From contig PBZO01000004.1 of the NCBI GenBank assembly GCA_002731115.1, positions 1 to 47,857 of the forward strand: 47,857 nucleotides of DNA. Reading direction: 5' to 3'. The stretch comes from Candidatus Pacearchaeota archaeon. GTDB taxonomy: Archaea > Nanobdellota > Nanobdellia > Pacearchaeales > GW2011-AR1. Below are positions 1 through 47,857 of this stretch, piece by piece (position 1 is the stretch's first letter; every line of letters begins with the position of its first letter). Below the pieces are notes generated by a model, which searched no databases, was not told the origin of the DNA, and saw only the letters and a list, made by a program, of their open reading frames with translations. Made by a program: the position numbers and the translations under genes.

Positions 1-420
1 AAAAAATCTAAAATTAAGAAACCAACTAAAAAAGATTTTGAATTTAGTTATAGAATGATTGTTTATCCTTTGAGGATAAAAAAGCATTATGAAATATGTA
101 GCGCAAGAGACAATTTATTATTTTTTTCAGACTTAGCAAATCGCTCAATTGAAATTTTAATTAAACTTATTTATTCGTTAAATAAAAAAGAATATGTTTG
201 CATGAAATGGGCAAAAAATGATTTGAAAAAGTTCAAAATAAAACCAAAGGATTTTGACAATAGAATAAACAATCTTATTTTATCGGGTAATAAAAATAAA
301 GAGTTAAAAAATAAGATTTATGAAATCTATAACTTAGGAAGGGAAATATATAGATTGATTTTAAAACAATTTCCAGACATAAAAAAAATAAAGAATCATA
401 TTGACTGGATGGATAAATAA
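1..420 (+). CDS. hypothetical protein, C-terminal fragment (gene starts upstream of the window)
   Basis: Frame 1 has no stop from base 1 to the TAA at 418-420. The listed ORF 55-420 is only the part after an internal Met. No motif I can name. Confidence 0.4.
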   Translation, partial: KKSKIKKPTKKDFEFSYRMIVYPLRIKKHYEICSARDNLLFFSDLANRSIEILIKLIYSLNKKEYVCMKWAKNDLKKFKIKPKDFDNRINNLILSGNKNKELKNKIYEIYNLGREIYRLILKQFPDIKKIKNHIDWMDK

Positions 421-624
421 TAATTGGCGAAGCCGACTGTCTGTTTTCGTAGAAACCCGCGCGCTCCTTGTCTTTTGTTTTGACAATTTTATTTTCAACA
501 ATTTCGTTTAATCAGCGTGTTAAGTGAAATTTTAATTTCATTTTGGAGCGTTAAACGAAGATATCAAAATCAGAATTTTTGGTTTACCGACGCTGAGGAG
601 GAGATTGGAAATTGAAATGAACAA

Positions 625-655
625 CTATTAAGCGAATATTTATTTCGCTTAATAG
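625..655. repeat. perfect 12-7-12 inverted repeat (ctattaagcgaa / ttcgcttaatag) 56 nt upstream of the recombinase gene; a third direct copy of the aagcgaa arm lies at 672-678
   Basis: Read directly: ctattaagcgaa-tatttat-ttcgcttaatag. Function is not established (recombinase site, operator or terminator). Confidence 0.6.
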
Positions 656-710
656 TATCATCTAGTGCAAAAAGCGAACTTATTTAGACTTTAAACAATT
701 TCATAACTGT

Positions 711-1505
711 ATGGAAAAGAGTGGTAAAGATAATTACAAATTAATAGGTAAGCTTATTGAAGAAATAAAGCTTCGGAGATATTCATTTCAGACAGGAAAA
801 TCATACATTTCCATTGTTAAAGAATTTCTTAAGTCAGACTTAACTCCTAGGGAATTCTTATTGTCTTATACTTCTAAGAGTAAATCGACTATGAGGTCTG
901 CTTATTTTGCATTGAAGTTTTTTCATGAGAATGTTTTAGGAGAGGATTTCAAGGAAAAAATTCCTCTTGCTAGAAAATCATCAAAATTACCAATTGTTCT
1001 AAGTAGGGAAGAAGTCCATAAGATGATTGAAATTACGACAAACTTGAAACATCGTCTAGTGATGATGTTTTTGTATTATGCAGGTCTTCGTTTGGACGAG
1101 ACAAGAAACATCAAATGGAGCGATATTGATTTTGATAGAGAGATTATTCATCTTAAAACCGCAAAGGGAGACAAGGAAAGAAGAGTCTTTTTACATAAAC
1201 GATTAATCGAGAGTCTTGAAAGTATTGGAATAAAAGAAAGTGGTTGGATATTTTTTTCACAAAGAGGAAGCAAATACAATAAAAGAACAATTCAACAAAT
1301 TGTAAAAAATGCTTCTAGAAAAGTTGGAATAAAGAAAAACACTACACCTCACACTTTGAGACACAGTTTCGCTACACATTTACTTGAATCGGGAGCAGAT
1401 ATTAGGTATATTCAGCAGCTACTTGGACATAAAGACTTGAAAACAACCCAAATTTATACTCATGTAGCTAATAAAGATATAAAAAATTTAGCAGAATTGT
1501 TATAA
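711..1505 (+). CDS. tyrosine recombinase / integrase (XerA/XerC/XerD-like)
   Basis: Catalytic signature is present: AGLRLDE (Arg I), HTLRHSFATHLL (H-x-x-R), LLGH, and TQIYTHV (nucleophile Tyr). The N-terminal SAM-like core-binding domain is also present. Confidence 0.9.
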   Translation: MEKSGKDNYKLIGKLIEEIKLRRYSFQTGKSYISIVKEFLKSDLTPREFLLSYTSKSKSTMRSAYFALKFFHENVLGEDFKEKIPLARKSSKLPIVLSREEVHKMIEITTNLKHRLVMMFLYYAGLRLDETRNIKWSDIDFDREIIHLKTAKGDKERRVFLHKRLIESLESIGIKESGWIFFSQRGSKYNKRTIQQIVKNASRKVGIKKNTTPHTLRHSFATHLLESGADIRYIQQLLGHKDLKTTQIYTHVANKDIKNLAELL

Positions 1506-1591
1506 ATCTTAAACCTTAATCCAGGAACTTACTCGTTCCTAAAATCAAAACTCCCGTTAACTTAACAATGCACGGAAATATCTGGGAAAAG

Positions 1592-3640
1592 TTAACTTTC
1601 AACAACAGAAATTCCATTTTCTTTCCTGAATTTTATTACATTTTCAACAAAACTCTCTATTTTCTGCTCATGACTTACAATTATCAATTGCTTTACATTT
1701 AATTGCTGTAAAATATCCCTCATCTTATCCAATTGCTGATCAGAAAATCCATCTGTTGGTTCATCTAAGATAACAATGTCTCTTGTTTTTATTTTACTTA
1801 AAAGAGAATTAATAACTCTATTAAGAGAAAATCTATAAGCTAAGGCAATAGCTGTTCTTTCTCCTCCAGATAAATAGGAATAATCCAGTTCATAATCCTG
1901 CTGTTCTATTATTGGAGTAAAATCATCACTAAGTCTTATATTAAATGAATCTGAAACAAGCATGCAAAACCATTCTTCAAATAACTTTAGAAATTCTTTC
2001 CTAAGTTTAATCATTACATTTTTCTCAATAAAAGAGATAAGGGGCATAAACTTTTTTGTTAACCAATCTTCTAACTCAATAAGATAATTTAGCTTTTCTT
2101 TTACTTCTTCTGTTTTTTTTACTCTTTCCTTTAACTCTTCTATTTGTTTTGAAAAAACATCTATTTCTTTTTTTAATTCTGCTACATTTATCTCTACTAA
2201 TCTTTCTTGTTTTAAAGCTTCTTCTAGTTCTTTTTGTTTTGTTTCATAGATTAAATCAAATTTACTTAATTCAAAAACAGATGTCTTTAACGTGTCTTTA
2301 TGTTGATCTAAAAAATCTATATCTTTCTTAAGAGAAATATTTAGATTTTCAATATCCTTTAATCTACTTTGCTTTTCGTGAATCCCTTGGTATTTAATTT
2401 TTAGAATACTTAATTCTTGTATTTTCTTCTCATTTACAGAAGTCTCATTATGTATTTTCATTGCTTTCTCATAAATCTCTTTTTTCACTTGTTCTAAATT
2501 CTCTAATTTACTCTTATTTTCTGCTATATCCGAATGTGATTTATTTAAAACATTTGCTCTATAAACTGCCTCAACATTTTGCAAACAAGTTGGACAGATT
2601 TCTAAGTTAGAAATTTTCTGTTCTAACTTTTTAAGTTCATCTATTCTTAAATTAAAAGAGCTAATTTTTGAACTAATGTCCAAATTATTATTATCTAATT
2701 TCACTCTTTCTTCTTTCAAGAGTTTTATCTCTTGTTCTAATTGAAGTATTTGTGACTCATCAAATTTTATATTCTGTAATTCTTCTATCTGATTTCTTAA
2801 TTGTTCTATTATCTTTACATTGCTCGATATAGTTTCATCTTTATTTGAAATCATTATCTTTGTTTTTTCTACTTCTTGTTGAAATTTTATCTTTTCTTCT
2901 CTCTTTAAAGACACTTCTTCTCTTTCTTCTTGGATTTTCTTTCTTAATTCTGTTTTTGAGAGAAAATCTTTCTCAACCAAGATTAAATTAGAATATTTCT
3001 TTTCAAGATCAATTTCTTTTGATAATAAGTTTGATTTATCTTGTTCAAGACTTTCAGTAAATCCTTCTTTTCTTCTTTTTTCTTCTCTTATCCTAAGAAT
3101 TATTGTTAATGCATTCTCTAGGATTTTTTTATATCTATCAATTCCAAAAACATGCCTTAAGGTATTTATTCTTGTCCTTGAATCTTGTAATATAATTTGT
3201 TTCATCTCTTCTTGGGGAGTATAAACCGTGAATTTGTATAAGATATTTTGTTTTTTTGAGAATTCCTTGGGATAATTTAATAATTCAAGAACTTGATTTT
3301 TAAGTTCTATTACAGATATTTCTTTTTTTTCTTTATTAATTGTAATTGCACAATAATCTTGTGAAACTGTCTTTGCTTTTTTTAGTGTTCTTTCAATTAT
3401 AATATCTTTTTTATCAATATCAAGTTCTATTATTACTCCTCCTTCTTTTGTCCCATTTCTCAATAAGGAGGAACCTCTCTGTCCAGGTTGCAATCCAAAT
3501 AATGCAAATTCTACCCCTAAAAGAATTGAAGTTTTTCCAGAACCAATATCTCCCGATAATAAAGTAGAACCCTCTGGGAAATCAATTTCTTGATGTTCAT
3601 AACTTCGTATATTATTTAGAGTTATTTTTTTCAGTCTCAT
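1592..3640 (-). CDS. rad50: Rad50 DNA double-strand break repair ATPase (short coiled-coil version, 682 aa)
   Basis: Walker A GDIGSGKTS, zinc hook CPTC in the middle of a long K/E-rich coiled coil, signature LSGGERT, Walker B VILDEPT. The start lies 1 nt after the mre11 stop. Confidence 0.9.
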   Translation of the reverse strand: MRLKKITLNNIRSYEHQEIDFPEGSTLLSGDIGSGKTSILLGVEFALFGLQPGQRGSSLLRNGTKEGGVIIELDIDKKDIIIERTLKKAKTVSQDYCAITINKEKKEISVIELKNQVLELLNYPKEFSKKQNILYKFTVYTPQEEMKQIILQDSRTRINTLRHVFGIDRYKKILENALTIILRIREEKRRKEGFTESLEQDKSNLLSKEIDLEKKYSNLILVEKDFLSKTELRKKIQEEREEVSLKREEKIKFQQEVEKTKIMISNKDETISSNVKIIEQLRNQIEELQNIKFDESQILQLEQEIKLLKEERVKLDNNNLDISSKISSFNLRIDELKKLEQKISNLEICPTCLQNVEAVYRANVLNKSHSDIAENKSKLENLEQVKKEIYEKAMKIHNETSVNEKKIQELSILKIKYQGIHEKQSRLKDIENLNISLKKDIDFLDQHKDTLKTSVFELSKFDLIYETKQKELEEALKQERLVEINVAELKKEIDVFSKQIEELKERVKKTEEVKEKLNYLIELEDWLTKKFMPLISFIEKNVMIKLRKEFLKLFEEWFCMLVSDSFNIRLSDDFTPIIEQQDYELDYSYLSGGERTAIALAYRFSLNRVINSLLSKIKTRDIVILDEPTDGFSDQQLDKMRDILQQLNVKQLIIVSHEQKIESFVENVIKFRKENGISVVES

Positions 3641-7918: not shown

Positions 7919-10900
7919 ATAGATATCTTATAATATTATTAATAGGCATATTTTTTGTGTCTTTAATTAGTTCTACTAAAGATTTAGATAATAAAATTGA
8001 TGATGCTGTTTTAGATAAACTTGAAGATGAAGAAGATGTTGAAGTAATTGTAAAGCTAAAAGATGAATCTCTAATTACAAAGAAATCTAGGGTTAATATT
8101 TTTTCTAAGAATAAGGTTGAAACTTTTTCTAATGGAATAGAAATTGATAATAAGTTTAAAGATTCTTTTACAACAAATATCACAAAAGATGAATTAGATA
8201 AATTAAAATCAAATGAGGATGTTTTAACGATTATAGAATCAAAAAGAGCTAAACTATTTTTACAAGATTCTAGAGGAATTATGAATGCTACACCTACTTT
8301 TCCTGTTCAGATCTCAGGAACAAATATTACAGGAGTCGATGAAACAATTTGTGTTATTGATACAGGAATTAATTATACTCATCCTGATTTTGGAGGATGT
8401 TCTAATAAAAGTTTTCTTGATGGAAATTGTTCGAAGGTTATTGGAGGATGGGATTTTAATACAGGAACAGAAGATAGTGATCCTATGGATTTTCATGGTC
8501 ATGGAACACATGTTGCAGGAACTGTTGCAGCAAATGGAAATATAACTGGAATTGCACCTGGTGCAAAAATTGTATCTGTAAAAGTCTTTAATGATGCCGG
8601 AAGTGGAGGAAATCAATTAGTATTAGCTAATGCAATTCAGTGGTGTGTTGATAATTCTTCTATATTTAATATATCTGTAATTACAATGAGTTTAGGATTT
8701 GCAGATAATCGAACTAGTTATTGTGATTCAAGTTATCCGAGTATGACTGGAGCAATAAATAATGCTACTGCAAAAAACATAACCGTAACTGTTGCAACTG
8801 GAAATGATTATAATTATACTGCAATTTCTCCTCCTGCATGTATAAGAAACTCAACAGCTATTGGTGCTACAGATAAAAGTGATAATTTTGCGAGTTATAG
8901 CAATAGAAATAATATAACAGATTTATTTGCAACAGGATCAAGTATAAATGCAACAAGATGGAATTCTGATTCTTGCTCTGCTGGTTGTTCTTGTAGTGGA
9001 AATTATATGGTCTGTTCAGGAACATCAATGGCAACTCCCCATGTTGCAGGGATATTCTCTCTTATTAGGCAATTTTATAGATTACAAAGTAATAGAGTTC
9101 TACTTCCTTCTGAGATTGAAAGTACTTTAAATAAGACCGGAGTTAGATTAAGCGATGATTCAAGTGGATTAAATTTTTCCAGAGTTGATATTTATTCTGC
9201 AATTTTATCTATAGATGAAACACCTCCAAATGTAACACTTATCTCTCCTACAAATAAAACAATAAATTCTATTAATAATCAAACTTTTTCATGCAATGCA
9301 ACTGATGAAGTTGGGTTAAAAAATATTACATTTTATTTATGGAATTCAAGTGATGATATAATTAATCAGACAATAACTAATATTTCTGGCACATCTAATT
9401 TAACTTCATGGAATATTACAAATCTTTCTTATGAAAATTACCACTGGAATTGCTTAGCATATGACAGTAATAACTCCGCATATGCAAGTTCTAATTTTAG
9501 TTTAACAATGGGAAATATCAGTGTTACCTTAAATTCTCCATTAAATAACACTATTGCAAATCAAAACCAAACATTTAATTGCAGTTTTTCATCTACAAAT
9601 ACATTATCTAATTCAACTTTCTATATTTGGAATTCTTCAGATAATCTACTATATAATAATACAAAAAATATTTCTGGAACAACAAATAGTTCCAATTTTA
9701 GCTATAATTTCACATATGAAGATACTTATAAATGGAATTGTTTATCTTATAATAATCTTAATCTGAAAACTTATGCTTCATCAAATTTCTCAGTTACATA
9801 TGATTTAACTAATCCTACATTAAATATAACTTCCCCTATAAATAATAGTTGGTATAAGGTTGGAAGATTTAATATAACAATAAATGAAAGCGGGAATTGT
9901 ACTTATTCCTTGAACTCAGGAATAAATAATGTCTCAATGAGTTCGAGTGATAATTTAGTATTTAATTCAAGTAATTCTAGTTTAAGTGCAACTAGTTCTT
10001 CTGATGATTATAATGTTACATTCTATTGTGAGGATAGTGCTGGAAATAAAAACTCAAGTTCATTAATATTCTTTGGTATTGATTTATCTTATCCAAATAT
10101 AACTCTAATAAGTCCTGATACTCCATCTTCTTATACCTCTAATTCTCAAAATATAACTTTTAATTATAATGTAACTGATAACCTGAATATCTCAAGTTGT
10201 AATTTAATTATTGATGGTGAAATTAATCAAACATCCTCTGCAATTACAAATCAATCAGAAACACAAAGTTTTACAGAAAGTTTTTCTCCTGGAAGTTATA
10301 ATTGGCAAATAAATTGTACTGATTCTGCAGGAAATATAAATAATTCACTTTCTAGAAGTTTTAGTATTAGTGCTCCTGCAAGTAGTAGTGAGGAAAGTAG
10401 TACAAGTTCTTCAGGAGGTGGAGGTGGAGGTGGAGGTGGAAGTATTAAAGAAAGTTTAACTAGCTCAATCTCTACACCCCAAATATACTCTCCAAGTAGT
10501 GGGCAAACTTCTTCAGGATATACCAAGGAATTAAGTGAAAATGATAGAATAAAATTTACTCTTCTTAATATTAGTACAGGAGAACATAGTTTAACAATTG
10601 ATAACCTTGAGAATGATTCTGTTAGTATTACTATTCATAGTAATCCCCTAAAAATTGTTTTAAGTATAGGAGAGAGTATAAAGCTTAATTTAACTTCTTC
10701 TGATTATTATGACTTATATCTTAAATTAGAAGAAATTGTAAATAAAAAAGCTAAAATTACAATTAAGACAATTAATGAACCTATTCCAAAAGTAATTGAA
10801 GATTCTCCAATAGATGATAGCGAAGAAATTGAAAAAAAGATAAAATTCCCAGATCTTGAATTAGAGAAATTAAGAAATATTATTTATACATTAATACCAA

Positions 10901-10989
10901 TATTTATAATTATCCTTATATTTGTATTAATTACAAGGAAAAGAAAAAAGAAAAATGAAACCACTAAAACCAAGCGCAAAAGAAAATAA
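7903..10989 (+). CDS. S8 subtilisin-like serine protease with I9-like propeptide, four Ig-like repeats, poly-Gly linker and C-terminal TM anchor
   Basis: Catalytic triad motifs VIDTGI, HGHGTHVAG and GTSMATPHVAG. N-terminal signal anchor. Repeats of about 90 aa start at LISPTNKT, LNSPLNNT, ITSPINNS and LISPDTPS. Nine consecutive Gly (GGGGGGGGG), then TM plus RKRKKK tail. Confidence 0.9.
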   Translation: MYREINRYLIILLIGIFFVSLISSTKDLDNKIDDAVLDKLEDEEDVEVIVKLKDESLITKKSRVNIFSKNKVETFSNGIEIDNKFKDSFTTNITKDELDKLKSNEDVLTIIESKRAKLFLQDSRGIMNATPTFPVQISGTNITGVDETICVIDTGINYTHPDFGGCSNKSFLDGNCSKVIGGWDFNTGTEDSDPMDFHGHGTHVAGTVAANGNITGIAPGAKIVSVKVFNDAGSGGNQLVLANAIQWCVDNSSIFNISVITMSLGFADNRTSYCDSSYPSMTGAINNATAKNITVTVATGNDYNYTAISPPACIRNSTAIGATDKSDNFASYSNRNNITDLFATGSSINATRWNSDSCSAGCSCSGNYMVCSGTSMATPHVAGIFSLIRQFYRLQSNRVLLPSEIESTLNKTGVRLSDDSSGLNFSRVDIYSAILSIDETPPNVTLISPTNKTINSINNQTFSCNATDEVGLKNITFYLWNSSDDIINQTITNISGTSNLTSWNITNLSYENYHWNCLAYDSNNSAYASSNFSLTMGNISVTLNSPLNNTIANQNQTFNCSFSSTNTLSNSTFYIWNSSDNLLYNNTKNISGTTNSSNFSYNFTYEDTYKWNCLSYNNLNLKTYASSNFSVTYDLTNPTLNITSPINNSWYKVGRFNITINESGNCTYSLNSGINNVSMSSSDNLVFNSSNSSLSATSSSDDYNVTFYCEDSAGNKNSSSLIFFGIDLSYPNITLISPDTPSSYTSNSQNITFNYNVTDNLNISSCNLIIDGEINQTSSAITNQSETQSFTESFSPGSYNWQINCTDSAGNINNSLSRSFSISAPASSSEESSTSSSGGGGGGGGGSIKESLTSSISTPQIYSPSSGQTSSGYTKELSENDRIKFTLLNISTGEHSLTIDNLENDSVSITIHSNPLKIVLSIGESIKLNLTSSDYYDLYLKLEEIVNKKAKITIKTINEPIPKVIEDSPIDDSEEIEKKIKFPDLELEKLRNIIYTLIPIFIIILIFVLITRKRKKKNETTKTKRKRK
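10414..10440 (+). repeat. (ggaggt)n hexanucleotide microsatellite encoding the poly-Gly linker of the subtilase
   Basis: Read directly: ggaggtggaggtggaggtggaggtgga. Confidence 0.8.
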
Positions 10990-11230
10990 AAGATATTTAT
11001 TTGTAAAAGGCAGGAATCTAGATAAAAATATTGAAAAATCTATTTTAGAATTTATTGGAACTTGGGGAATGTCGAAAGTTGGTTTAGGCTTTATAAAAAC
11101 AGGGGAAAATTATTCAATTATCTCTATAAATCGTGAGATGGTGGATCTTGTAAGAGCTAGTTTTTGTGTCTTCTCTAAAGAAATTAGTGTGGAAAAAGTT
11201 AGTGGGACTTTGAAGGGGTTAAAGAAATAA
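10955..11230 (+). CDS. rnp2: RNase P protein component 2 (Pop5/Rpp14 family)
   Basis: N-terminus KPLKPSAKENKRYLFV and C-terminal VSGTLKGL resemble archaeal Pop5. It occupies the canonical position upstream of psmA in the exosome superoperon. Confidence 0.6.
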   Translation: MKPLKPSAKENKRYLFVKGRNLDKNIEKSILEFIGTWGMSKVGLGFIKTGENYSIISINREMVDLVRASFCVFSKEISVEKVSGTLKGLKK

Positions 11231-11444
11231 AGTTTGGCATTACAGAATATCAGCTCACATTAAATTAACAACTCTCCTATTTTTCATAAGCTACTAATAT
11301 TCATAAATCTTCCAATTCTGCTACCCTTATATAATAACGCTTAAATTTTCTAAACCAAAAACCTTTTAAATAGAAGCAACTTATAGGATAAGCAGAGAAA
11401 AAGAAGAAAGTTTTAAATTTATTATAAAATTCTCTAAAATTACA

Positions 11445-12164
11445 ATGGAAATGCCAATAGACATGCAACATCAAGCAATGGGCTATGACAGAACTGCAAC
11501 AATGTTCTCTCCAGAAGGTCATTTGCTTCAGGTAGAATATGCAGAAAAAGCAGTTAGGCTTAGTCCTTCAAGTATCGGAATGGTGTGTTCTGATGGAGTT
11601 TTTATTATAGCTGATAAAAGAATAGATGATAAGTTAATAGTCTCAGAATCAGCAAATAAAATCTATGAAGTTGATTCACATATTATTGCAAGTATTGCAG
11701 GAATAGTATCTGATGCAAGAGTCTTAGTTGAAAGAGCACAAGTTCTAGCACAACAACATAGAATAACCTATGATTCTTCAATAGAACCAGAATTAATAAT
11801 TAAAGAAATTTCAAATGTAAAACAACAATTTAGTCAATATGGTGGAGCAAGACCTTTTGGTGTTTTCCTTATGATTGCTGGAATGAACAATAAAAAACCT
11901 CAATTATTTACAAGTAGTGTTACAGGAAATTACCTTTCATATAATGCAAATGCTATTGGTGAAAATGATGAGAAGATAAAAGAAAAACTAAGAGAGAAAT
12001 ATAAACCTGAATTAACAATTAAAAAAGGTATTAAAGTTGCACTTGATATATTTAAAGAAATACAAGGTAGTAAATTTGATTTAGAAAAATTTGAATTATT
12101 TTATATTAATAAAGATAAAATTGAGAGAATAGAAGGAGATAAATTGAGAGAATTTGTAAAATGA
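11445..12164 (+). CDS. psmA: proteasome alpha subunit
   Basis: YDRTATMFSPEGHLLQVEYA signature and overall 20S alpha-subunit layout. Confidence 0.9.
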   Translation: MEMPIDMQHQAMGYDRTATMFSPEGHLLQVEYAEKAVRLSPSSIGMVCSDGVFIIADKRIDDKLIVSESANKIYEVDSHIIASIAGIVSDARVLVERAQVLAQQHRITYDSSIEPELIIKEISNVKQQFSQYGGARPFGVFLMIAGMNNKKPQLFTSSVTGNYLSYNANAIGENDEKIKEKLREKYKPELTIKKGIKVALDIFKEIQGSKFDLEKFELFYINKDKIERIEGDKLREFVK

Positions 12165-42508: not shown

Positions 42509-43786
42509 TTATTTCTTAACTCTATCTTTAGACTTCTTATTATCAATTAAATTTCTCCTAATAACATAATTAACTGGATTTTTTATTAACTTGCAAAAAT
42601 CGTTTGGAGAACAAATACCAATCCCCTGATAAAATTCTTTGCAATTTGGAGGCATTATAGTATTTTTTTTATAACTCCATAATACCTGAGATTTGATATA
42701 CCCTTGTTTTAGAGGATATTCATTTTTATTATTCCAATCATCTATTCTTTTTTCTAACTCATCTCTATCCATCCCAATAGAGCGAAATAAATTTATTAAG
42801 ACAAATAATGCTCTTTTCTTTCCATCACTAATTCCTTTTAATATATTTTGAATGCAAGGAGGAAAGTTTTTTTCTGATAAATTAATTAATTTAATTGGTT
42901 TGTAATTAAAATCTTTTTTTTCTTTTTTTTCGCTATCACCTTCCTTATACCAATCGAGTGCCTGCATTAAAAGTTCTGAAGCTTCTCCTTCTTTTGCATC
43001 TGGCATAAAATTCTTAATTTTTACTTTCATGGGGTCTGCATCTTTTAATTGAAAATCCTTTATTTCTTCAGGATTTATTACCACGCTTGCTAAAGCTGTT
43101 TTTTCATGAAGTGAATAAGGTGTTCTAAATAAATGTCTTGGAGAAACTAAAATAATATCCGGCATTACTTCTTTTGATGCTTGAAAATCTCTTATATATT
43201 TATTTGGTTTAGAAAGTTTAGTAATTTCTTCGATTAATTTCTTTTCTGTTTGTTTTATAATATATTTCACAATTATCCTTGGCCATTCTGGAAACATATT
43301 GGAAGTTTTTATTTCATTAATTTCCTTGGGAAAAGCAATCCATGGAATAATAATATGCAGGCCCTTTGATCCTGAAAATTTTACTCCAATGTTTTTAACT
43401 CCATGAAATTTTAACATATTAATTATAACTTCTGCAGAAATCCTGCTGTAATCAAAATACTTACTATCAATGTCAATTACTAAATCCCAACCAGTTCTTA
43501 ATTCATTCATTTGTTTTTCATTTAACCCTGTAGATAAACTTAAGGGATCACTCCAAATCTCTTCTGAACAATGAAAGGATGTTGCTCCTTTTTTTACTAA
43601 TTCAAAAACATCATTCGGGTACTCTAGAGAATCTGGTCTTTTTCCAAAACCTTCAAAATATCTTGGGGTAACCTCGCGATATCTTGAAAATTCATAAATT
43701 GCTTTTTGAACTTCGGGTTTTGAATAATAAAATTCAGTTATTTTTCTAATTCTTTGTTCCTTAATACCTTTTTCTTGATTTCCCAT
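42509..43786 (-). CDS. priS: DNA primase catalytic subunit PriS with fused PriL-like Fe-S C-terminal domain
   Basis: AEP motifs WDLVIDIDS (DxD), FSGSKGLHIII, PRHLFRTPYSLHEKT. The C-terminal part has FPPCIQNIL plus three more Cys (PPNC, GIC, DFC) and NPVNY. Confidence 0.8.
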   Translation of the reverse strand: MGNQEKGIKEQRIRKITEFYYSKPEVQKAIYEFSRYREVTPRYFEGFGKRPDSLEYPNDVFELVKKGATSFHCSEEIWSDPLSLSTGLNEKQMNELRTGWDLVIDIDSKYFDYSRISAEVIINMLKFHGVKNIGVKFSGSKGLHIIIPWIAFPKEINEIKTSNMFPEWPRIIVKYIIKQTEKKLIEEITKLSKPNKYIRDFQASKEVMPDIILVSPRHLFRTPYSLHEKTALASVVINPEEIKDFQLKDADPMKVKIKNFMPDAKEGEASELLMQALDWYKEGDSEKKEKKDFNYKPIKLINLSEKNFPPCIQNILKGISDGKKRALFVLINLFRSIGMDRDELEKRIDDWNNKNEYPLKQGYIKSQVLWSYKKNTIMPPNCKEFYQGIGICSPNDFCKLIKNPVNYVIRRNLIDNKKSKDRVKK

Positions 43787-43865
43787 ATTAAAAATAACTA
43801 GGCAAGATTTAAATATTTACACTATTATCCAAGACAATAATACTTAAAAACAAATAGCTTTTTTT

Positions 43866-44609
43866 ATGAAGATGTTAATAAAACTGGAAAATCCAATGTT
43901 ATTATCTAAGGCAGTTGATATTATTTCTGAATTAGTTGCAGAAGTAAGAATTAAAGTAGATGAATCTGGAATGAGTATCAGTGCAATAGACTCTGCAAAT
44001 GTTGCAATGATTGGTTTTAAACTTCCAAAAAGTGCTTTTTCACAATTTGAAACAGAAAAGGAAACATTGGGTATTAATTTAGATGATTTAAAAAAGATTT
44101 TAAAAAGATGTAGTTTAGGAAGTTCTTTAATTTTAGAGAAAAAAGAAAATTTATTAAAAATTGATATTCAGGATAGAATAAAAAGAAATTTTACATTAAG
44201 TCTTATTGAAATAGAAGGAGAAGAAATAGATTTTAGTTCTAAAGTAGAAAATAAGGAATTTAGTTCTATTGTTGAAATAAATTCAGTTGATTTAATCTCA
44301 TCAATTGAAGATTGTATAGTTGTCTCTGATGCCTGCTCATTTATAATTAATGAGGGAAAATTTATAATTGAAGCCAAAGAATTAAATTCTGCAAGGTCTG
44401 AATTCTCTGGAGATGAAGCAAAGATAAATGCAGAAAATTGTAAATCAAGATATAGTCTAGAATATTTGCAAAAATTTATGAAAGCATCAAAACTAACTGA
44501 TAAAACAACCTTGCATTTTGCAAATGAACATCCCTTAAAAATGGATGTTAAAACAGGTCAAATGGAGATTAATTTTATTCTAGCTCCAAGAGTTGAAGAT
44601 GAAGACTAG
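43866..44609 (+). CDS. pcn: DNA polymerase sliding clamp PCNA
   Basis: 247 aa with a two-domain repeat layout. N-terminus LLSKAVDIISELVAEVRIKVDESGMSISAIDSANVAMIGFKL; C-terminal acidic tail. Confidence 0.8.
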   Translation: MKMLIKLENPMLLSKAVDIISELVAEVRIKVDESGMSISAIDSANVAMIGFKLPKSAFSQFETEKETLGINLDDLKKILKRCSLGSSLILEKKENLLKIDIQDRIKRNFTLSLIEIEGEEIDFSSKVENKEFSSIVEINSVDLISSIEDCIVVSDACSFIINEGKFIIEAKELNSARSEFSGDEAKINAENCKSRYSLEYLQKFMKASKLTDKTTLHFANEHPLKMDVKTGQMEINFILAPRVEDED

Positions 44610-44717
44610 AAAATTGAGATAGAAATAAATCTATAGATTCTTATTAATTTATCTTATAAATTAATTCTAATCTATTTTTAAAAAAAAGTTTATAAGTTAA
44701 TATATATTAATCCTTGT

Positions 44718-45491
44718 ATGAAAAGGGGGCAAATAAGTATTTTTATAATTGTTGGAATTATAATTATTAGTGCTATTGCCTTAACCCTGGTTTTTAGAAG
44801 TGAAGTAGTTCCAGAAATTGGGGGGAAACCAGAAACAAATCCTAATCGTTTCTTAGAATCTTGTATGGAAGATAAAGTTAAGGAAGGTATTGAAAAGATT
44901 TCAATACAAGGCGGATATATAACTCACTCCCTAAATAAACCCTTTAAATTTGAAGATGAGAAAGAAACAATAGATATTTCATATTTATGTTATACTCAAA
45001 GTTATTATGTTCCCTGCATAAATCAAGAGCCAGTATTAATTAAACATTTAACAGATGAATTAGAAGAATATATTTCAGATGAGGTTAAGAATTGCCTTGA
45101 TGGTTTAAGTTTAAATCTAGATAAAGAGGGATATAATGTTGATGCAAAATATGATGGATTTGATGTTGCTTTAATGCCAAATAAAGTTTCAATTGAACTG
45201 GATAATAAGATGATTTTAACAAAAGCAGGTGAAACTTCAATTAAAGAAGATTTCAAGGTTTTAATTCCAACTAGGTTTTATGATTTGGCACTTGTTGTTC
45301 AGGAAATTATTAGCCAGGAAGCAGAATATTGCCATTTTGAAACTTTAGGTTATATGTTATTTTACCCTCAATTTGATATAGATAAATTTACAACAGGAGA
45401 ATCTACAATAATTTATACTATAGAACATAGAGATAGTAAAGAAAGGTTTAGATTTGCTGTTAGAAGCTGTGTAATGCCTCCTGGATTTTAA
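44718..45491 (+). CDS. protein with class III (type IV pilin-like) signal peptide, unknown function
   Basis: MKRGQ-ISIFIIVGIIIISAIALTLVF resembles the archaeal prepilin peptidase motif ([KR]G[QA] followed by a hydrophobic helix). Its stop lies 1 nt before the next ATG. Confidence 0.5.
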   Translation: MKRGQISIFIIVGIIIISAIALTLVFRSEVVPEIGGKPETNPNRFLESCMEDKVKEGIEKISIQGGYITHSLNKPFKFEDEKETIDISYLCYTQSYYVPCINQEPVLIKHLTDELEEYISDEVKNCLDGLSLNLDKEGYNVDAKYDGFDVALMPNKVSIELDNKMILTKAGETSIKEDFKVLIPTRFYDLALVVQEIISQEAEYCHFETLGYMLFYPQFDIDKFTTGESTIIYTIEHRDSKERFRFAVRSCVMPPGF

Positions 45492-45492
45492 G

Positions 45493-47857
45493 ATGAAAAC
45501 AAAAAAAATAAGTATTATATTAATTGCAGTATTTCAAATTCTTCTATTAATTAATATGATTAATGCTCATAGTTATATAATTGCTCAAAATAATGAGAAT
45601 AATATATCTCAAGAAAATGATTCTAATAAATCAAGTAATATAATTAACTTAATTATAAACATATTTTTTAAGGTTTTTTCAATAAAACAAATTGGAACTG
45701 TTTCTGCAAGTTCAAGTAGTGAAGCATGGAATTGCTGTCCTCTAACAAATGATGGGGCTATATGCCAGGATATTACCTCAACTGATACAACAAGTTGTGA
45801 TAATCCCTTGCCAACAAAATGTAATAAGGTTCTTAGATGTGAACCTGGATGTTGTGTTGATTCTAATGAAGGTTTATGTACAACAAACTCTCCTAAGGAA
45901 AAATGTGAAGGAGATGGGGGAGTCTGGAATAATGATAAAAATTGCAACCAACAAGAATGCAAAAATGGCTGTTGTGTTCTGGGAAGTAGTGTTAGATTCA
46001 CAACAGAAAAATCTTGTAAAAAACTTTCTGAATTTCAAGGTTCTGAAATTGATTTTAGAAATATTGATACAGAAATTGAATGTTTAGCACTTTCTAAAAC
46101 TCAAATAGAAGGTGCTTGTGTTTTACAAGGAAGATGTAGTTTGCAAACAGAATCAGGTTGTTCTTCAAAAAGTGGAAAATTTTACAAAGAACTTTTATGT
46201 TCTAATCCCTCATTAGACACTGATTGTGAAAAACAAGATTCAATAGGATGTATTGAACAAAGAGATGAAATTTATTGGTTTGATTCTTGCGGAAATAAAG
46301 AGAATATTTACTCTTCTAATAGAGATTTTAGCTGGAATAATGGAAAAATCTTAAAGAAAAGTGAAAGTTGTGGTGCTGATTCTGGTAATATTGATTCTGA
46401 AAACTGCGGAAATTGCAATTATTTTCTAGGAAGTAGATGTTCTAAATCTAGTGAAGCTGGAGATAAAAAAGTAGTAGACGGAGATTTTATTTGTGAAAAT
46501 AAAAATTGTATTGATGAAAATGGAAATGAGAGAGAAAACGGGGAGAGTTGGTGTGTTTATGATGGAAGTATAGGAAATAGAACAACTCCTTTTAATAATG
46601 GTATTTATGTTAATAATACTTATTTTAATGGTACTTATTCTAATAATACTTATTTTAATCTTACTTACTTTAATAATACTTACTCTAATTGTACTTATCT
46701 TGATAATACTTACTCTAATTGTACTTATTTAAATAAGACTCTTGTAAAGGGTAGTTTTGCAAGTGATACTGTTGGAAGTCGTCATTGGAAAAGAGAATGT
46801 ATTGATGGTGAAATCAAGGTTGATCCTTGTGCTGATTACAGAGGAGAAATTTGCACTCAAACAGTAATAGAAGATACTTCATCTATGAAAAACTTCTCAA
46901 TTGCATCTTGTGTAATAAATGAAGCAATGATGTGTTTTAATTATAATAATGATAAAGAAACAATGGAAGAAGACTGTAATGAAAATACACATTGTATGAT
47001 TAATAATGTTGATGTTAGTGAGGGTTTTAAATTTGATTTGTGTGTTCCTAGATATCCTAAAGGGTTTGATTTGAAAGATTCTTCTGCTGTTTCAGATAAT
47101 TTATGTTCTATGGCAAATCAGAAATGTACTGTTGTTTATGAAAAAGGAGGATTATTTGGAGGCGGTGGATGCAAACAAAATTGTGAGTGTGAAAGTAAAA
47201 AGTTTGCAGAAGAAATGAATGATTTATGTGTTAGTTTAGGTGATTGTGGAAGTTATGTAAATTACGAAGGAATTGGAACAGATAATATTAGAGTTAGTGG
47301 TGCTTCAGAAATTTCTTGGGAAGATTATGCAGATTATTCAAATGTTGTTGAAGGACAATTTGTAAAACCACAAGATATTGATACATTTTTGTCAGCTCTT
47401 GTTGGAGAAAATATAGAAGGAGAACCTGATGAAGAAAATGAGTTTCTTGGAATTAGTGAAGAAGAATTAAAACAATTTGAAATGATTAAGGGGGCAGCAG
47501 GAGCAGTATCTGCAGGAGTATCTTATTTAACAGGAACTAGTTTATTTTATGCTAAGGGTTATGGATTTTTCGTTGGGTCTTCATCCTCTATTGCAGGACA
47601 GGGAGTTACGAATGTAGGAGCAGCATTTGCAGGTGCTGCAATTGGTTCAGCTATTGGTGCAATTGCAGGACAATATCTTGCAGAATGGCTTGGATTAGAA
47701 GGAAATGATGCAATGGCAATGACCATAGGGGCAGGAGTTGTTGGAGGAACAATTGGATATGCAATGTTTGCAGCTAAAGGAAAGGTTATTAGCACCTTAT
47801 TCACTCCTGCGGGAGGAGCTACCATGTATTTTTTCTATGCAGGACTTGCTATAATGG
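45493..47857 (+). CDS. large secreted cysteine-rich protein with pentapeptide sequon array and C-terminal glycine-zipper membrane region (partial, runs off the window)
   Basis: Translated by hand: frame 1 is open from the ATG at 45493 to the window end, which is why it is absent from the ORF track. Signal peptide MKTKKISIILIAVFQILLLINMINA. Repeated xCCx5Gx2C modules (NCCPLTNDGAIC, PGCCVDSNEGLC, NGCCVLGSS). The end is Gly/Ala-rich and hydrophobic. Confidence 0.75.
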   Translation, partial: MKTKKISIILIAVFQILLLINMINAHSYIIAQNNENNISQENDSNKSSNIINLIINIFFKVFSIKQIGTVSASSSSEAWNCCPLTNDGAICQDITSTDTTSCDNPLPTKCNKVLRCEPGCCVDSNEGLCTTNSPKEKCEGDGGVWNNDKNCNQQECKNGCCVLGSSVRFTTEKSCKKLSEFQGSEIDFRNIDTEIECLALSKTQIEGACVLQGRCSLQTESGCSSKSGKFYKELLCSNPSLDTDCEKQDSIGCIEQRDEIYWFDSCGNKENIYSSNRDFSWNNGKILKKSESCGADSGNIDSENCGNCNYFLGSRCSKSSEAGDKKVVDGDFICENKNCIDENGNERENGESWCVYDGSIGNRTTPFNNGIYVNNTYFNGTYSNNTYFNLTYFNNTYSNCTYLDNTYSNCTYLNKTLVKGSFASDTVGSRHWKRECIDGEIKVDPCADYRGEICTQTVIEDTSSMKNFSIASCVINEAMMCFNYNNDKETMEEDCNENTHCMINNVDVSEGFKFDLCVPRYPKGFDLKDSSAVSDNLCSMANQKCTVVYEKGGLFGGGGCKQNCECESKKFAEEMNDLCVSLGDCGSYVNYEGIGTDNIRVSGASEISWEDYADYSNVVEGQFVKPQDIDTFLSALVGENIEGEPDEENEFLGISEEELKQFEMIKGAAGAVSAGVSYLTGTSLFYAKGYGFFVGSSSSIAGQGVTNVGAAFAGAAIGSAIGAIAGQYLAEWLGLEGNDAMAMTIGAGVVGGTIGYAMFAAKGKVISTLFTPAGGATMYFFYAGLAIM
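46594..46740 (+). repeat. in-frame 15-nt tandem repeat (about 10 units) encoding x-N-x-T-Y pentapeptides
   Basis: Units: aataatggtatttat, gttaataatacttat, tttaatggtacttat, tctaataatacttat, tttaatcttacttac, tttaataatacttac, tctaattgtacttat, cttgataatacttac, tctaattgtacttat, ttaaataagactctt. Confidence 0.85.

Follow-up and report, generated by a model that had tools for sequence, protein, structure and literature searches.

What is the role of a gene pair in which a short, prepilin-like protein is followed at once by a giant cysteine-rich one? The pair, designated S1 and G, lies at the end of a 47,857-nucleotide (nt) stretch of DNA from Candidatus Pacearchaeota archaeon (GenBank assembly GCA_002731115.1, contig PBZO01000004.1), hereafter called the window. 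It corresponds to positions 1-47857 of this contig (C4) in an assembly of 485 kb in 15 contigs that is approximately 80% complete, and the organism is, as the first-pass annotation of this DNA had supposed, a small-genome archaeon, a marine member of the DPANN. S1-G stands first in a surface gene cluster of Pacearchaeota which is conserved and uncharacterised. Our tentative reading, to which we give slightly less than an even chance, is that S1 and G form an adaptor-plus-cargo surface complex which is primed by type IV filament (T4F) machinery and which opens a Pacearchaeota-type surface-assembly cluster.

The existence of both genes was established from the open reading frame (ORF) listing and by direct reading of the sequence, which confirmed the 257 amino-acid (aa) ORF and the open ATG frame reported earlier. 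The TAA stop of S1 (45489-45491) is followed by a single base and then by the ATG of G at 45493, which opens a frame of 788 codons reaching the window end and listed only when open ends are allowed. Since stops make up about 8% of random codons at the local G+C content of approximately 28%, such a frame is far beyond chance, the probability being ~1e-30 by arithmetic estimate. The first-pass annotation described this frame as not closing within the window, and it does close on the full contig. C4 is 49,990 nt in length and runs 2.1 kb beyond the window end, and extension into this region recovered the full G gene, which closes at C4:49398 after 1,301 codons, specifying 68 cysteines, without a stop or frameshift in between, so that no 3' end on another contig need be sought. 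Five ambiguous bases at C4:47858-47874 give rise to two X residues in the product. An artefact, a pseudogene or a frameshift was considered for G and ruled out by its normal closure at 1,301 codons and the abundance of full-length homologs. A third gene, S2, starts 75 nt after G, begins MNKRGQVTIFIII and is truncated by the contig end; its product is 36% identical to S1 (E 3e-36), making it an S1 paralog. The putative TATA-like box which precedes S1 is so positioned (Table 1) that it implies a short or absent leader, and a similar TTTATAAA is found ~26-33 nt upstream of the start of S2, beyond the window. A scan for bacterial sigma-70 promoters and terminators gave counts equal to those in shuffled sequences, the consensus being bacterial and the host an archaeon.

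Co-occurrence of the two genes was investigated for 28 G genes, eight of them in loci that were read and 20 from further G matches in many families of the phylum. An S gene is situated directly upstream of all eight of the former, at a spacing of -4 to +4 nt, in the distant relatives L003, L004 and L005, the near-identical contig L012 and the same-family genomes L013 and L014. An ORF matching the S profile precedes G in 17 of the 20 further cases, for a total of 25/28. The tight coupling contained in the earlier description of a two-gene operon is therefore upheld, and we infer that the pair is translationally coupled, as part of the tentative reading given above. The pair is not the self-contained unit which that description suggested, being the head of an 11-gene cluster. 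On complete contigs of relatives the order is S1, G, S2, N', a small Gly-rich protein, C', P1 (~165 aa), P2 (~305 aa), P3 (~170 aa), P4 (~165 aa) and a protein called surface-layer (S-layer)-like, the last assigned from its N-terminal sequence style alone. P1, P3 and P4 mostly possess [KR]-[GA]-Q-type N-termini, and that of P2 is K-[KR]-G-[EY] in two of three relatives. None of N', C' and P1-P4 was found by tblastn in this assembly (~80% complete), and comparison of the cluster partners to curated families gave nothing significant.

Of 301 genomes sampled across the phylum, 108 match the G profile, as do 12 of 13 others from the family of the window; the S profile matches 40 of 41 genomes searched in this family, many with S1/S2 pairs lying ~3.7-4.2 kb apart on one contig. 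Judging from the sequence matches, the S and G families are large, unannotated and found only in Pacearchaeota/Nanoarchaeota-type genomes. Two further observations concern the arrangement of the cluster. In an AR13-like relative (L005/L006 3736-13840) the S-G pair is duplicated in tandem (257+1,336 aa; 265+1,279 aa). The small protein encoded between N' and C' (206-330 aa; L013 9310-10302; L014 11820-12440 (-)) is Gly-rich at its N-terminus, contains a GGC lipobox-like motif and has no counterpart in L004.

The N-terminus of S1 is MKRG/QISIFIIVGIIIISAIALTLVF, opening with MKRG followed by QISIFIIVG. This is the arrangement of a class III signal, in which the N-terminal stretch is short and basic and ends in [KR]-[GA] before some 20 hydrophobic residues. 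Alignment of 43 sequences gave the family consensus [KR]-[GA]-Q-[VI]-[TS]-[IL]-F-I-I, and thus the class III-like signal first noticed on the 257-aa protein is a conserved [KR]-[GA]-Q N-terminus across the alignment. In the same alignment Q5, F9, C49, C91, C100 and C126 are invariant, and C205 and C251 are kept in at least 90% of the sequences, for a total of six conserved cysteines. A word-indexed search revealed 145 homologs at E <= 1e-3, all hypothetical and labelled Pacearchaeota, Nanoarchaeota or 'archaeon', with 45-96% identity among the 120 matches listed; an exhaustive profile search extended these to 6,254 cluster representatives at E <= 1e-3, of which 560 were at E <= 1e-30. No Pfam family was matched at E <= 0.1, including class III signal, DUF361/PF04021 and the archaeal pilin families, and the S1 profile had no match among PDB sequences. 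Against NCBIfam there was one chance-level match, to a YycF response regulator (E 0.032; 13.5 bits against a cut-off of 340 bits). The AlphaFold2 (AF2) model of S1, with a predicted local distance difference test score (pLDDT) of 88.9, contains a helix (residues 3-27), a disordered linker (28-37) and an alpha/beta globular domain.

The genome encodes the components which could process and assemble such a protein. An A24 prepilin peptidase (PF01478) is specified by contig C1 (positions 150908-151744), two T2SSE-type ATPases (PF00437) by C7 and C1, and a TadC/PilC-type platform (PF00482) by C7, where classical pilins with Gln at +1 and Glu at +5 lie beside the ATPase gene. Because this peptidase, the T4F ATPases and the platform are kept, it is plausible that S1 is processed by the genome's own prepilin peptidase. 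S-type genes also occur in two other cassettes. At C8:4105-12008 (+) a 613-aa S paralog overlaps by 4 nt the gene of a 2,021-aa signal-peptide protein with 38 cysteines, and at C1:108335-111423 (-) a 252-aa S paralog overlaps, again by 4 nt, that of a 777-aa signal-peptide protein. Both paralogs are of the KRGQVTIFIII type. Both recur in genomes of the family, the ~615-aa form in most of them, and by BLASTP neither the 2,021-aa nor the 777-aa partner is similar to G or to the other. That S paralogs precede unrelated large exported proteins supports the reading of S as an adaptor and of its neighbour as the cargo.

G has 417 homologs of ~1,066-1,453 aa, with 38-96% identity among the 120 matches listed and 38-57% identity across genera. 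All are unnamed save one, which carries the evidently mistaken label 'GRP family sugar transporter'. Searches of Pfam and NCBIfam with G gave chance-level matches far below the cut-offs (Vault repeat), and its profile had no match among PDB sequences; the earlier remark that no known family was recognised agrees with these results, there being no curated Pfam or NCBIfam family and no PDB sequence match for either. In a Pfam scan of 36 G members the matches were all sub-threshold, to Big_13 (4), Y_Y_Y (3), Big_3_3 (2) and the Glycine zipper 2TM families PF05433 (2/36) and PF13441 (1/36).

The structure of G was taken from the AF2 model of a homolog, P0152 (1,173 aa, 51% identical), and mapped onto G; it is not a model of the window's own protein. 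Its mean pLDDT is 79, with most of the two large modules at 80-94. Features of the locus are collected in Table 1. Following the anchor helix, the family alignment reveals a conserved SIKQIGxVSA motif at residues 63-72. The Gly/Ala-rich hydrophobic helices begin at approximately residue 704, and the H1-H2 hairpin consists of two G/A-rich helices joined by a 6-residue loop. Of the four parts distinguished in the first-pass annotation, the signal or anchor, the Cys-rich part and the sequon array were found. The Gly/Ala-rich membrane segment had been placed at the end of the protein and lies in its middle, because the gene continues past the window into a conserved C-module of 500 aa.

Table 1. 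Features of the S1-G locus (window numbering, except positions prefixed C4, which are those of the contig)
Feature	Position	Strand	Basis or remark
TATA-like box TTTATAAG	44689..44696	+	~26 nt upstream of S1 start; sequence read; putative promoter
S1, 257-aa prepilin-like membrane-anchored protein with globular domain	44718..45491	+	ORF, homologs, AF2 model
Class III-type signal MKRG, putative cut before Gln5; hydrophobic helix, residues 5-27	44718..44798	+	Alignment, AF2
G, first 788 of 1,301 codons	45493..47857	+	Continues to C4:49398
G N-terminal signal or anchor helix, residues 1-25	45493..45567	+	Hydropathy, family alignment
G N-module, residues 79-625, exported beta-rich, 9% Cys	45727..47367	+	Alignments, AF2
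15/30-nt tandem repeat, N-x-T-Y sequon ladder	46596..46740	+	Tandem Repeats Finder
G variable linker, residues 626-707			AF2 of P0152 mapped onto G
Gly-zipper-like helical hairpin, H1 (708-732) and H2 (738-759)	47614..47769	+	AF2 of P0152 (helices 598-622, 628-649), mapped
H3 start, residues 772-796, most hydrophobic membrane helix	47806..47857	+	Continues past window
G C-module, residues 800-1301, tandem immunoglobulin-like	C4:47806-49395 (H3 and C-module)	+	AF2, Foldseek
Patch hypervariable at the population level; loop between H2 and H3, with the first half of H3	47749-47849	+	74% identity with indels to L012; as a feature, taken to 47857

Cysteine is the most conspicuous residue of G. There are 47 in the part specified by the window, and the family alignment contains ~66 which are invariant or nearly so, 45 in the N-module and 21 in the C-module. 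The repeated CC-x5-G-x2-C modules of the first-pass annotation were an overstatement, since G possesses one exact copy (residue 81) and one CC-x5-G-x-C variant (residue 120), with 4-5 extra N-terminal copies in some relatives only. Several relatives (P0122, P0133, P0138, P0145 and P0170) have 2-5 additional CCPET-x-G-x-C modules at the N-terminus of G (alignment columns ~120-290). The sequon ladder occupies one loop of the N-module and is specific to the lineage, an insert missing from nearly all aligned homologs and identical in a 96% relative. N-glycosylation sequons are depleted family-wide in this module, with an observed to expected ratio of 0.33 (z -12.5 over 59 members, a value which overstates independence, the sequences being related); despite this depletion, the present lineage has inserted ~8-10 sequons in the one loop.

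Structure prediction followed by Foldseek, which had been suggested earlier, gave no PDB match for S1 and fold-level matches to immunoglobulin (Ig)-like arrays for the C-module of G. With the whole P0152 model the matches were exclusively to tandem Ig/fibronectin type III (FN3)/cadherin arrays, at E 1e-13 to 1e-8, over ~450-500 columns and with 8-13% identity. Among the matched proteins are ectodomains of cell-adhesion molecules, SbsB, SiiE, GhpA and phage tail proteins, a likeness at the level of the fold. A viral fusogen-like or other viral fold was sought for G, and the 50 Foldseek matches listed were to Ig/FN3 arrays only.

The two modules are also encoded apart. N' of relatives, a protein of 500-584 aa in which a plain Sec signal immediately precedes the CC motif, is paralogous to residues 70-594 of G (32-34% identity, E 1e-70 to 1e-79). 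C' is a membrane protein of 710-766 aa whose paralogy to G extends over the membrane helices and the C-module, with a BLASTP alignment to residues 803-1289 at 35% identity (E 5e-77). Genome searches revealed that most G carriers possess one fused copy together with a split N'/C' pair. By these alignments G is a fusion of two modules which also exist as separate genes. The N-module is considered to be exported because its stand-alone paralog, N', carries a plain Sec signal.

In the adaptor-plus-cargo reading, the prepilin peptidase would cut S1, S2 and P1-P4, which, helped by the T4F base, could then form a short non-filament or tip-like assembly in the membrane, comparable to the minor pilins that present PilY1 or to the Sulfolobus bindosome. 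G, N' and C' would be held by this assembly at the surface of the cell, in the S-layer or beside it, where the Ig-like and Cys-rich modules may mediate envelope organisation, cell-to-cell contact or both. There are precedents in archaea for class III signals on binding proteins that form no filament, and for accessory proteins of PilY-like or Ig-fold type within T4F loci (PMC13705601). A bolder form of the proposal is that the cluster builds a DPANN-specific, non-filament envelope organelle, with a T4F-primed base, made up of six prepilin-like subunits, which carries membrane-embedded disulfide-rich giants, that this is the host-contact or intercellular-bridge apparatus of Pacearchaeota, and that the cassette of S-adaptor and cargo is general. 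In this form it is speculative and we consider it improbable.

Several results weigh against the adaptor-plus-cargo reading; they concern the nature of S1, the topology of G and the conservation of G. The model of S1, in which a disordered linker separates the transmembrane helix from the globular domain, is unlike the lollipop of a pilin, and Foldseek against the PDB revealed no structural relative and no pilin, the TM-scores being below 0.2. Position +5 is occupied by the invariant Phe (F9), not by the Glu of the EppA type. In the window and in the loci of relatives, no ATPase, platform or peptidase is encoded in or adjoining the S1-G cluster. Taken with the absence of a Pfam class III signal or pilin match, and with the one-to-one pairing of S paralogs with different large exported proteins, these points favour an explanation in which S1 is not a prepilin and acts independently of T4F, as a type II anchored maturation or folding factor for the downstream Cys-rich protein, or as its anchor. 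We regard this as unlikely. The strict [KR]-[GA]-Q and Phe at +5 over hundreds of sequences are hard to square with a simple anchor, four more proteins of the cluster share the N-terminal style, and a prepilin peptidase is kept in a genome of ~0.5 Mb. The signals of EppA-type archaeal prepilins end in Gly and are followed by Gln at +1 and Glu at +5, and the pilins of Sulfolobus and Haloferax are likewise without Glu at +5 (PMC3875500). S1 has the final Gly of the signal and the Gln at +1 (the invariant Q5), and its Phe at +5 is taken to exclude the EppA subtype, not class III signals generally.

The second group of results concerns the membrane helices of G. Three are predicted between the modules and a Lys-rich stretch follows H3 (K+R, 2.3 per 10 residues), which together would put the C-module in the cytoplasm, a placement at odds with a purely external adhesin. 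G might then be a trans-membrane coupling device, with the N-module outside and the C-module inside, for signalling, for an intercellular bridge or for fusion. The C' paralogs, which possess an N-terminal anchor (TM0) and three helices, are in keeping with such a device. So is the distribution of sequons, the depletion being confined to the N-module and the ratio in the C-module (0.97) being neutral like that of cytoplasmic controls (1.02), though these ratios do not by themselves place the C-module. Counting against a cytoplasmic C-module are its 21 invariant, mostly isolated cysteines in Ig-like beta-sandwiches, which have the appearance of disulfides in exported domains of this type; a fourth segment (LGxISGxxG...) upstream of H1, conserved and weakly hydrophobic, which could make the helix count even; and H2, which is weakly hydrophobic in some C' paralogs. 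For a role in fusion, no class II fusogen (Fusexin/HAP2) fold was found among the 50 matches listed from either the PDB or BFVD, in whole-model searches whose ranking is dominated by the Ig-like array. A coupling device appears very unlikely to us, and both modules of G are probably outside the membrane.

Thirdly, G is strongly conserved, which is unusual for host-specific adhesins. The first-pass annotation had put the pair forward as a candidate for host attachment or membrane interaction. The 38-57% identity of G across genera and its ~66 near-invariant cysteines suit a core part of the envelope no less well than an adhesin directed at a particular host. This bears on an explanation in which the locus has a housekeeping role as S-layer anchor or envelope scaffold, G, N' and C' forming a SlaB-like stalk that ties the S-layer-like protein to the membrane and the pilin-like proteins aiding its insertion or organisation. 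In L004, G085 and G241 the cluster ends at the S-layer-like gene, whose product has no hydrophobic C-terminal anchor in G085 and G241 (in L004 the locus ends within the gene). G is present in 12/13 sampled genomes of the family, its Ig-like array resembles, among others, the S-layer protein SbsB in the Foldseek comparison, and S-layer-like Ig-fold proteins in T4F loci have been proposed to prime the envelope (PMC13705601). The neighbour, however, owes its S-layer identity to the style of its N-terminus, and the S-type adaptor also precedes unrelated large proteins, which suggests a more general role in presentation. As an explanation of the whole locus the scaffold seems rather doubtful to us, and we retain, tentatively, the surface complex of adaptor and cargo.

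The G gene is also a site of microdiversity. A contig from the ENA, L012, has ~100% DNA identity to this genome across S1-G-S2, save for short patches inside G at 46012-46025, 47014-47025, 47103-47112, 47241-47291, 47578-47647 and 47749-47849. The last is the hypervariable patch of Table 1, and the N bases of the assembly at C4:47858-47874 follow it directly. The pattern resembles a mosaic of alleles within the population. A diversity-generating retroelement was considered as its origin and rejected because there is no template repeat, a second copy of the patch being absent, and no PF00078 reverse transcriptase in the genome; the patch also contains several indels.

Two observations were made outside the cluster. 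A fused PriS/PriL-like primase (-) and PCNA (+) are encoded just upstream of it, at 42509-44609 of the window. Primase and PCNA likewise precede the cluster in relatives, the synteny being shared by the near-identical contig L012 and by L003 and L004, which are distant. Contig C7 (11,993 nt) contains a direct repeat of 3.16 kb, whose two copies (1-3165 and 8734-11898) differ by one mismatch and recur with a period of 8,733 nt. Duplication in tandem, a circular element or an artefact of assembly could each explain it. This contig also carries five pilin-like genes, and RtcB-like and archease-like genes.

Pacearchaeota and related archaea, which are ultra-small, abundant and uncultivated, are presumed to be dependent on other cells, and we know of no attachment or envelope machinery that has been defined for them. 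S and G constitute two large families without annotation, Pfam model or structural relative over most of their length, tied to six prepilin-like genes and an S-layer gene, with G present in about one third of the sampled genomes of the phylum. A full-text literature search produced no description of either family. The S1-G cluster is accordingly a concrete candidate for a Pacearchaeota cell-surface apparatus and, if the reading proposed here is true, may be the means by which the contact surface of these cells is built. There may also be a general rule, that a prepilin-like adaptor gene lies directly upstream of each large exported protein. According to a 2026 census of archaeal T4F, which does not describe the S1-G cluster, T4F systems are rare in DPANN (PMC13705601), and this makes such a cluster unusual.

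Four groups of known systems resemble parts of the S1-G cluster. The C-module of G, like the Ig/FN3/cadherin adhesins and S-layer proteins SiiE, MpIBP, GhpA and SbsB, has 4-5 beta-sandwich domains; those proteins lack its Cys pattern and its fusion to a Gly-zipper domain and a 9%-Cys module. With the Epd pili (T4F system 1) of Methanococcus maripaludis (PMC3875500), S shares a signal ending in Gly/Ala and the Gln at +1. There too several pilin-like genes are clustered, and the present genome has a classical Q+1/E+5 pilin by its ATPase. S differs in its Phe at +5, in having no DUF361/PF04021 match and in its size of ~257 aa with a large domain of unmatched fold, and no eppA-like gene is present in the S1-G cluster. 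In the Sulfolobus bindosome (Bas system, PMC13705601), where sugar-binding proteins bear class III signal peptides, as in S, such an N-terminus is found on surface proteins that are not filament subunits and that have large globular domains, and these substrates, like the S proteins, are encoded away from the T4F machinery which serves them. Pfam revealed no solute-binding domain in S, and its partners are giant exported proteins instead of ATP-binding cassette (ABC) transporters.

PilY1-type tip adhesins possess a C-terminal beta-propeller (PilY1/PilC domain) and often an N-terminal vWA domain. G has neither of these, according to AF2, Foldseek and Pfam, and contains instead a Cys-rich module, Gly-zipper helices and Ig-like repeats. 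It also differs from PilY1 in being membrane-embedded itself and in showing no sequence or profile similarity to it, and no major pilin is evident in the cluster. The resemblance lies in the composition of the set. FimU-PilVWX with PilY1, and archaeal T4F subsystem 4A/B with the PilY-like arCOG03511 (PMC13705601), likewise combine short prepilin-like proteins, one of them larger (here P2, ~305 aa), with very large Sec-exported non-pilins, and in the minor-pilin/PilY1 system, as in the S1-G genome, the ATPase and platform are encoded elsewhere.

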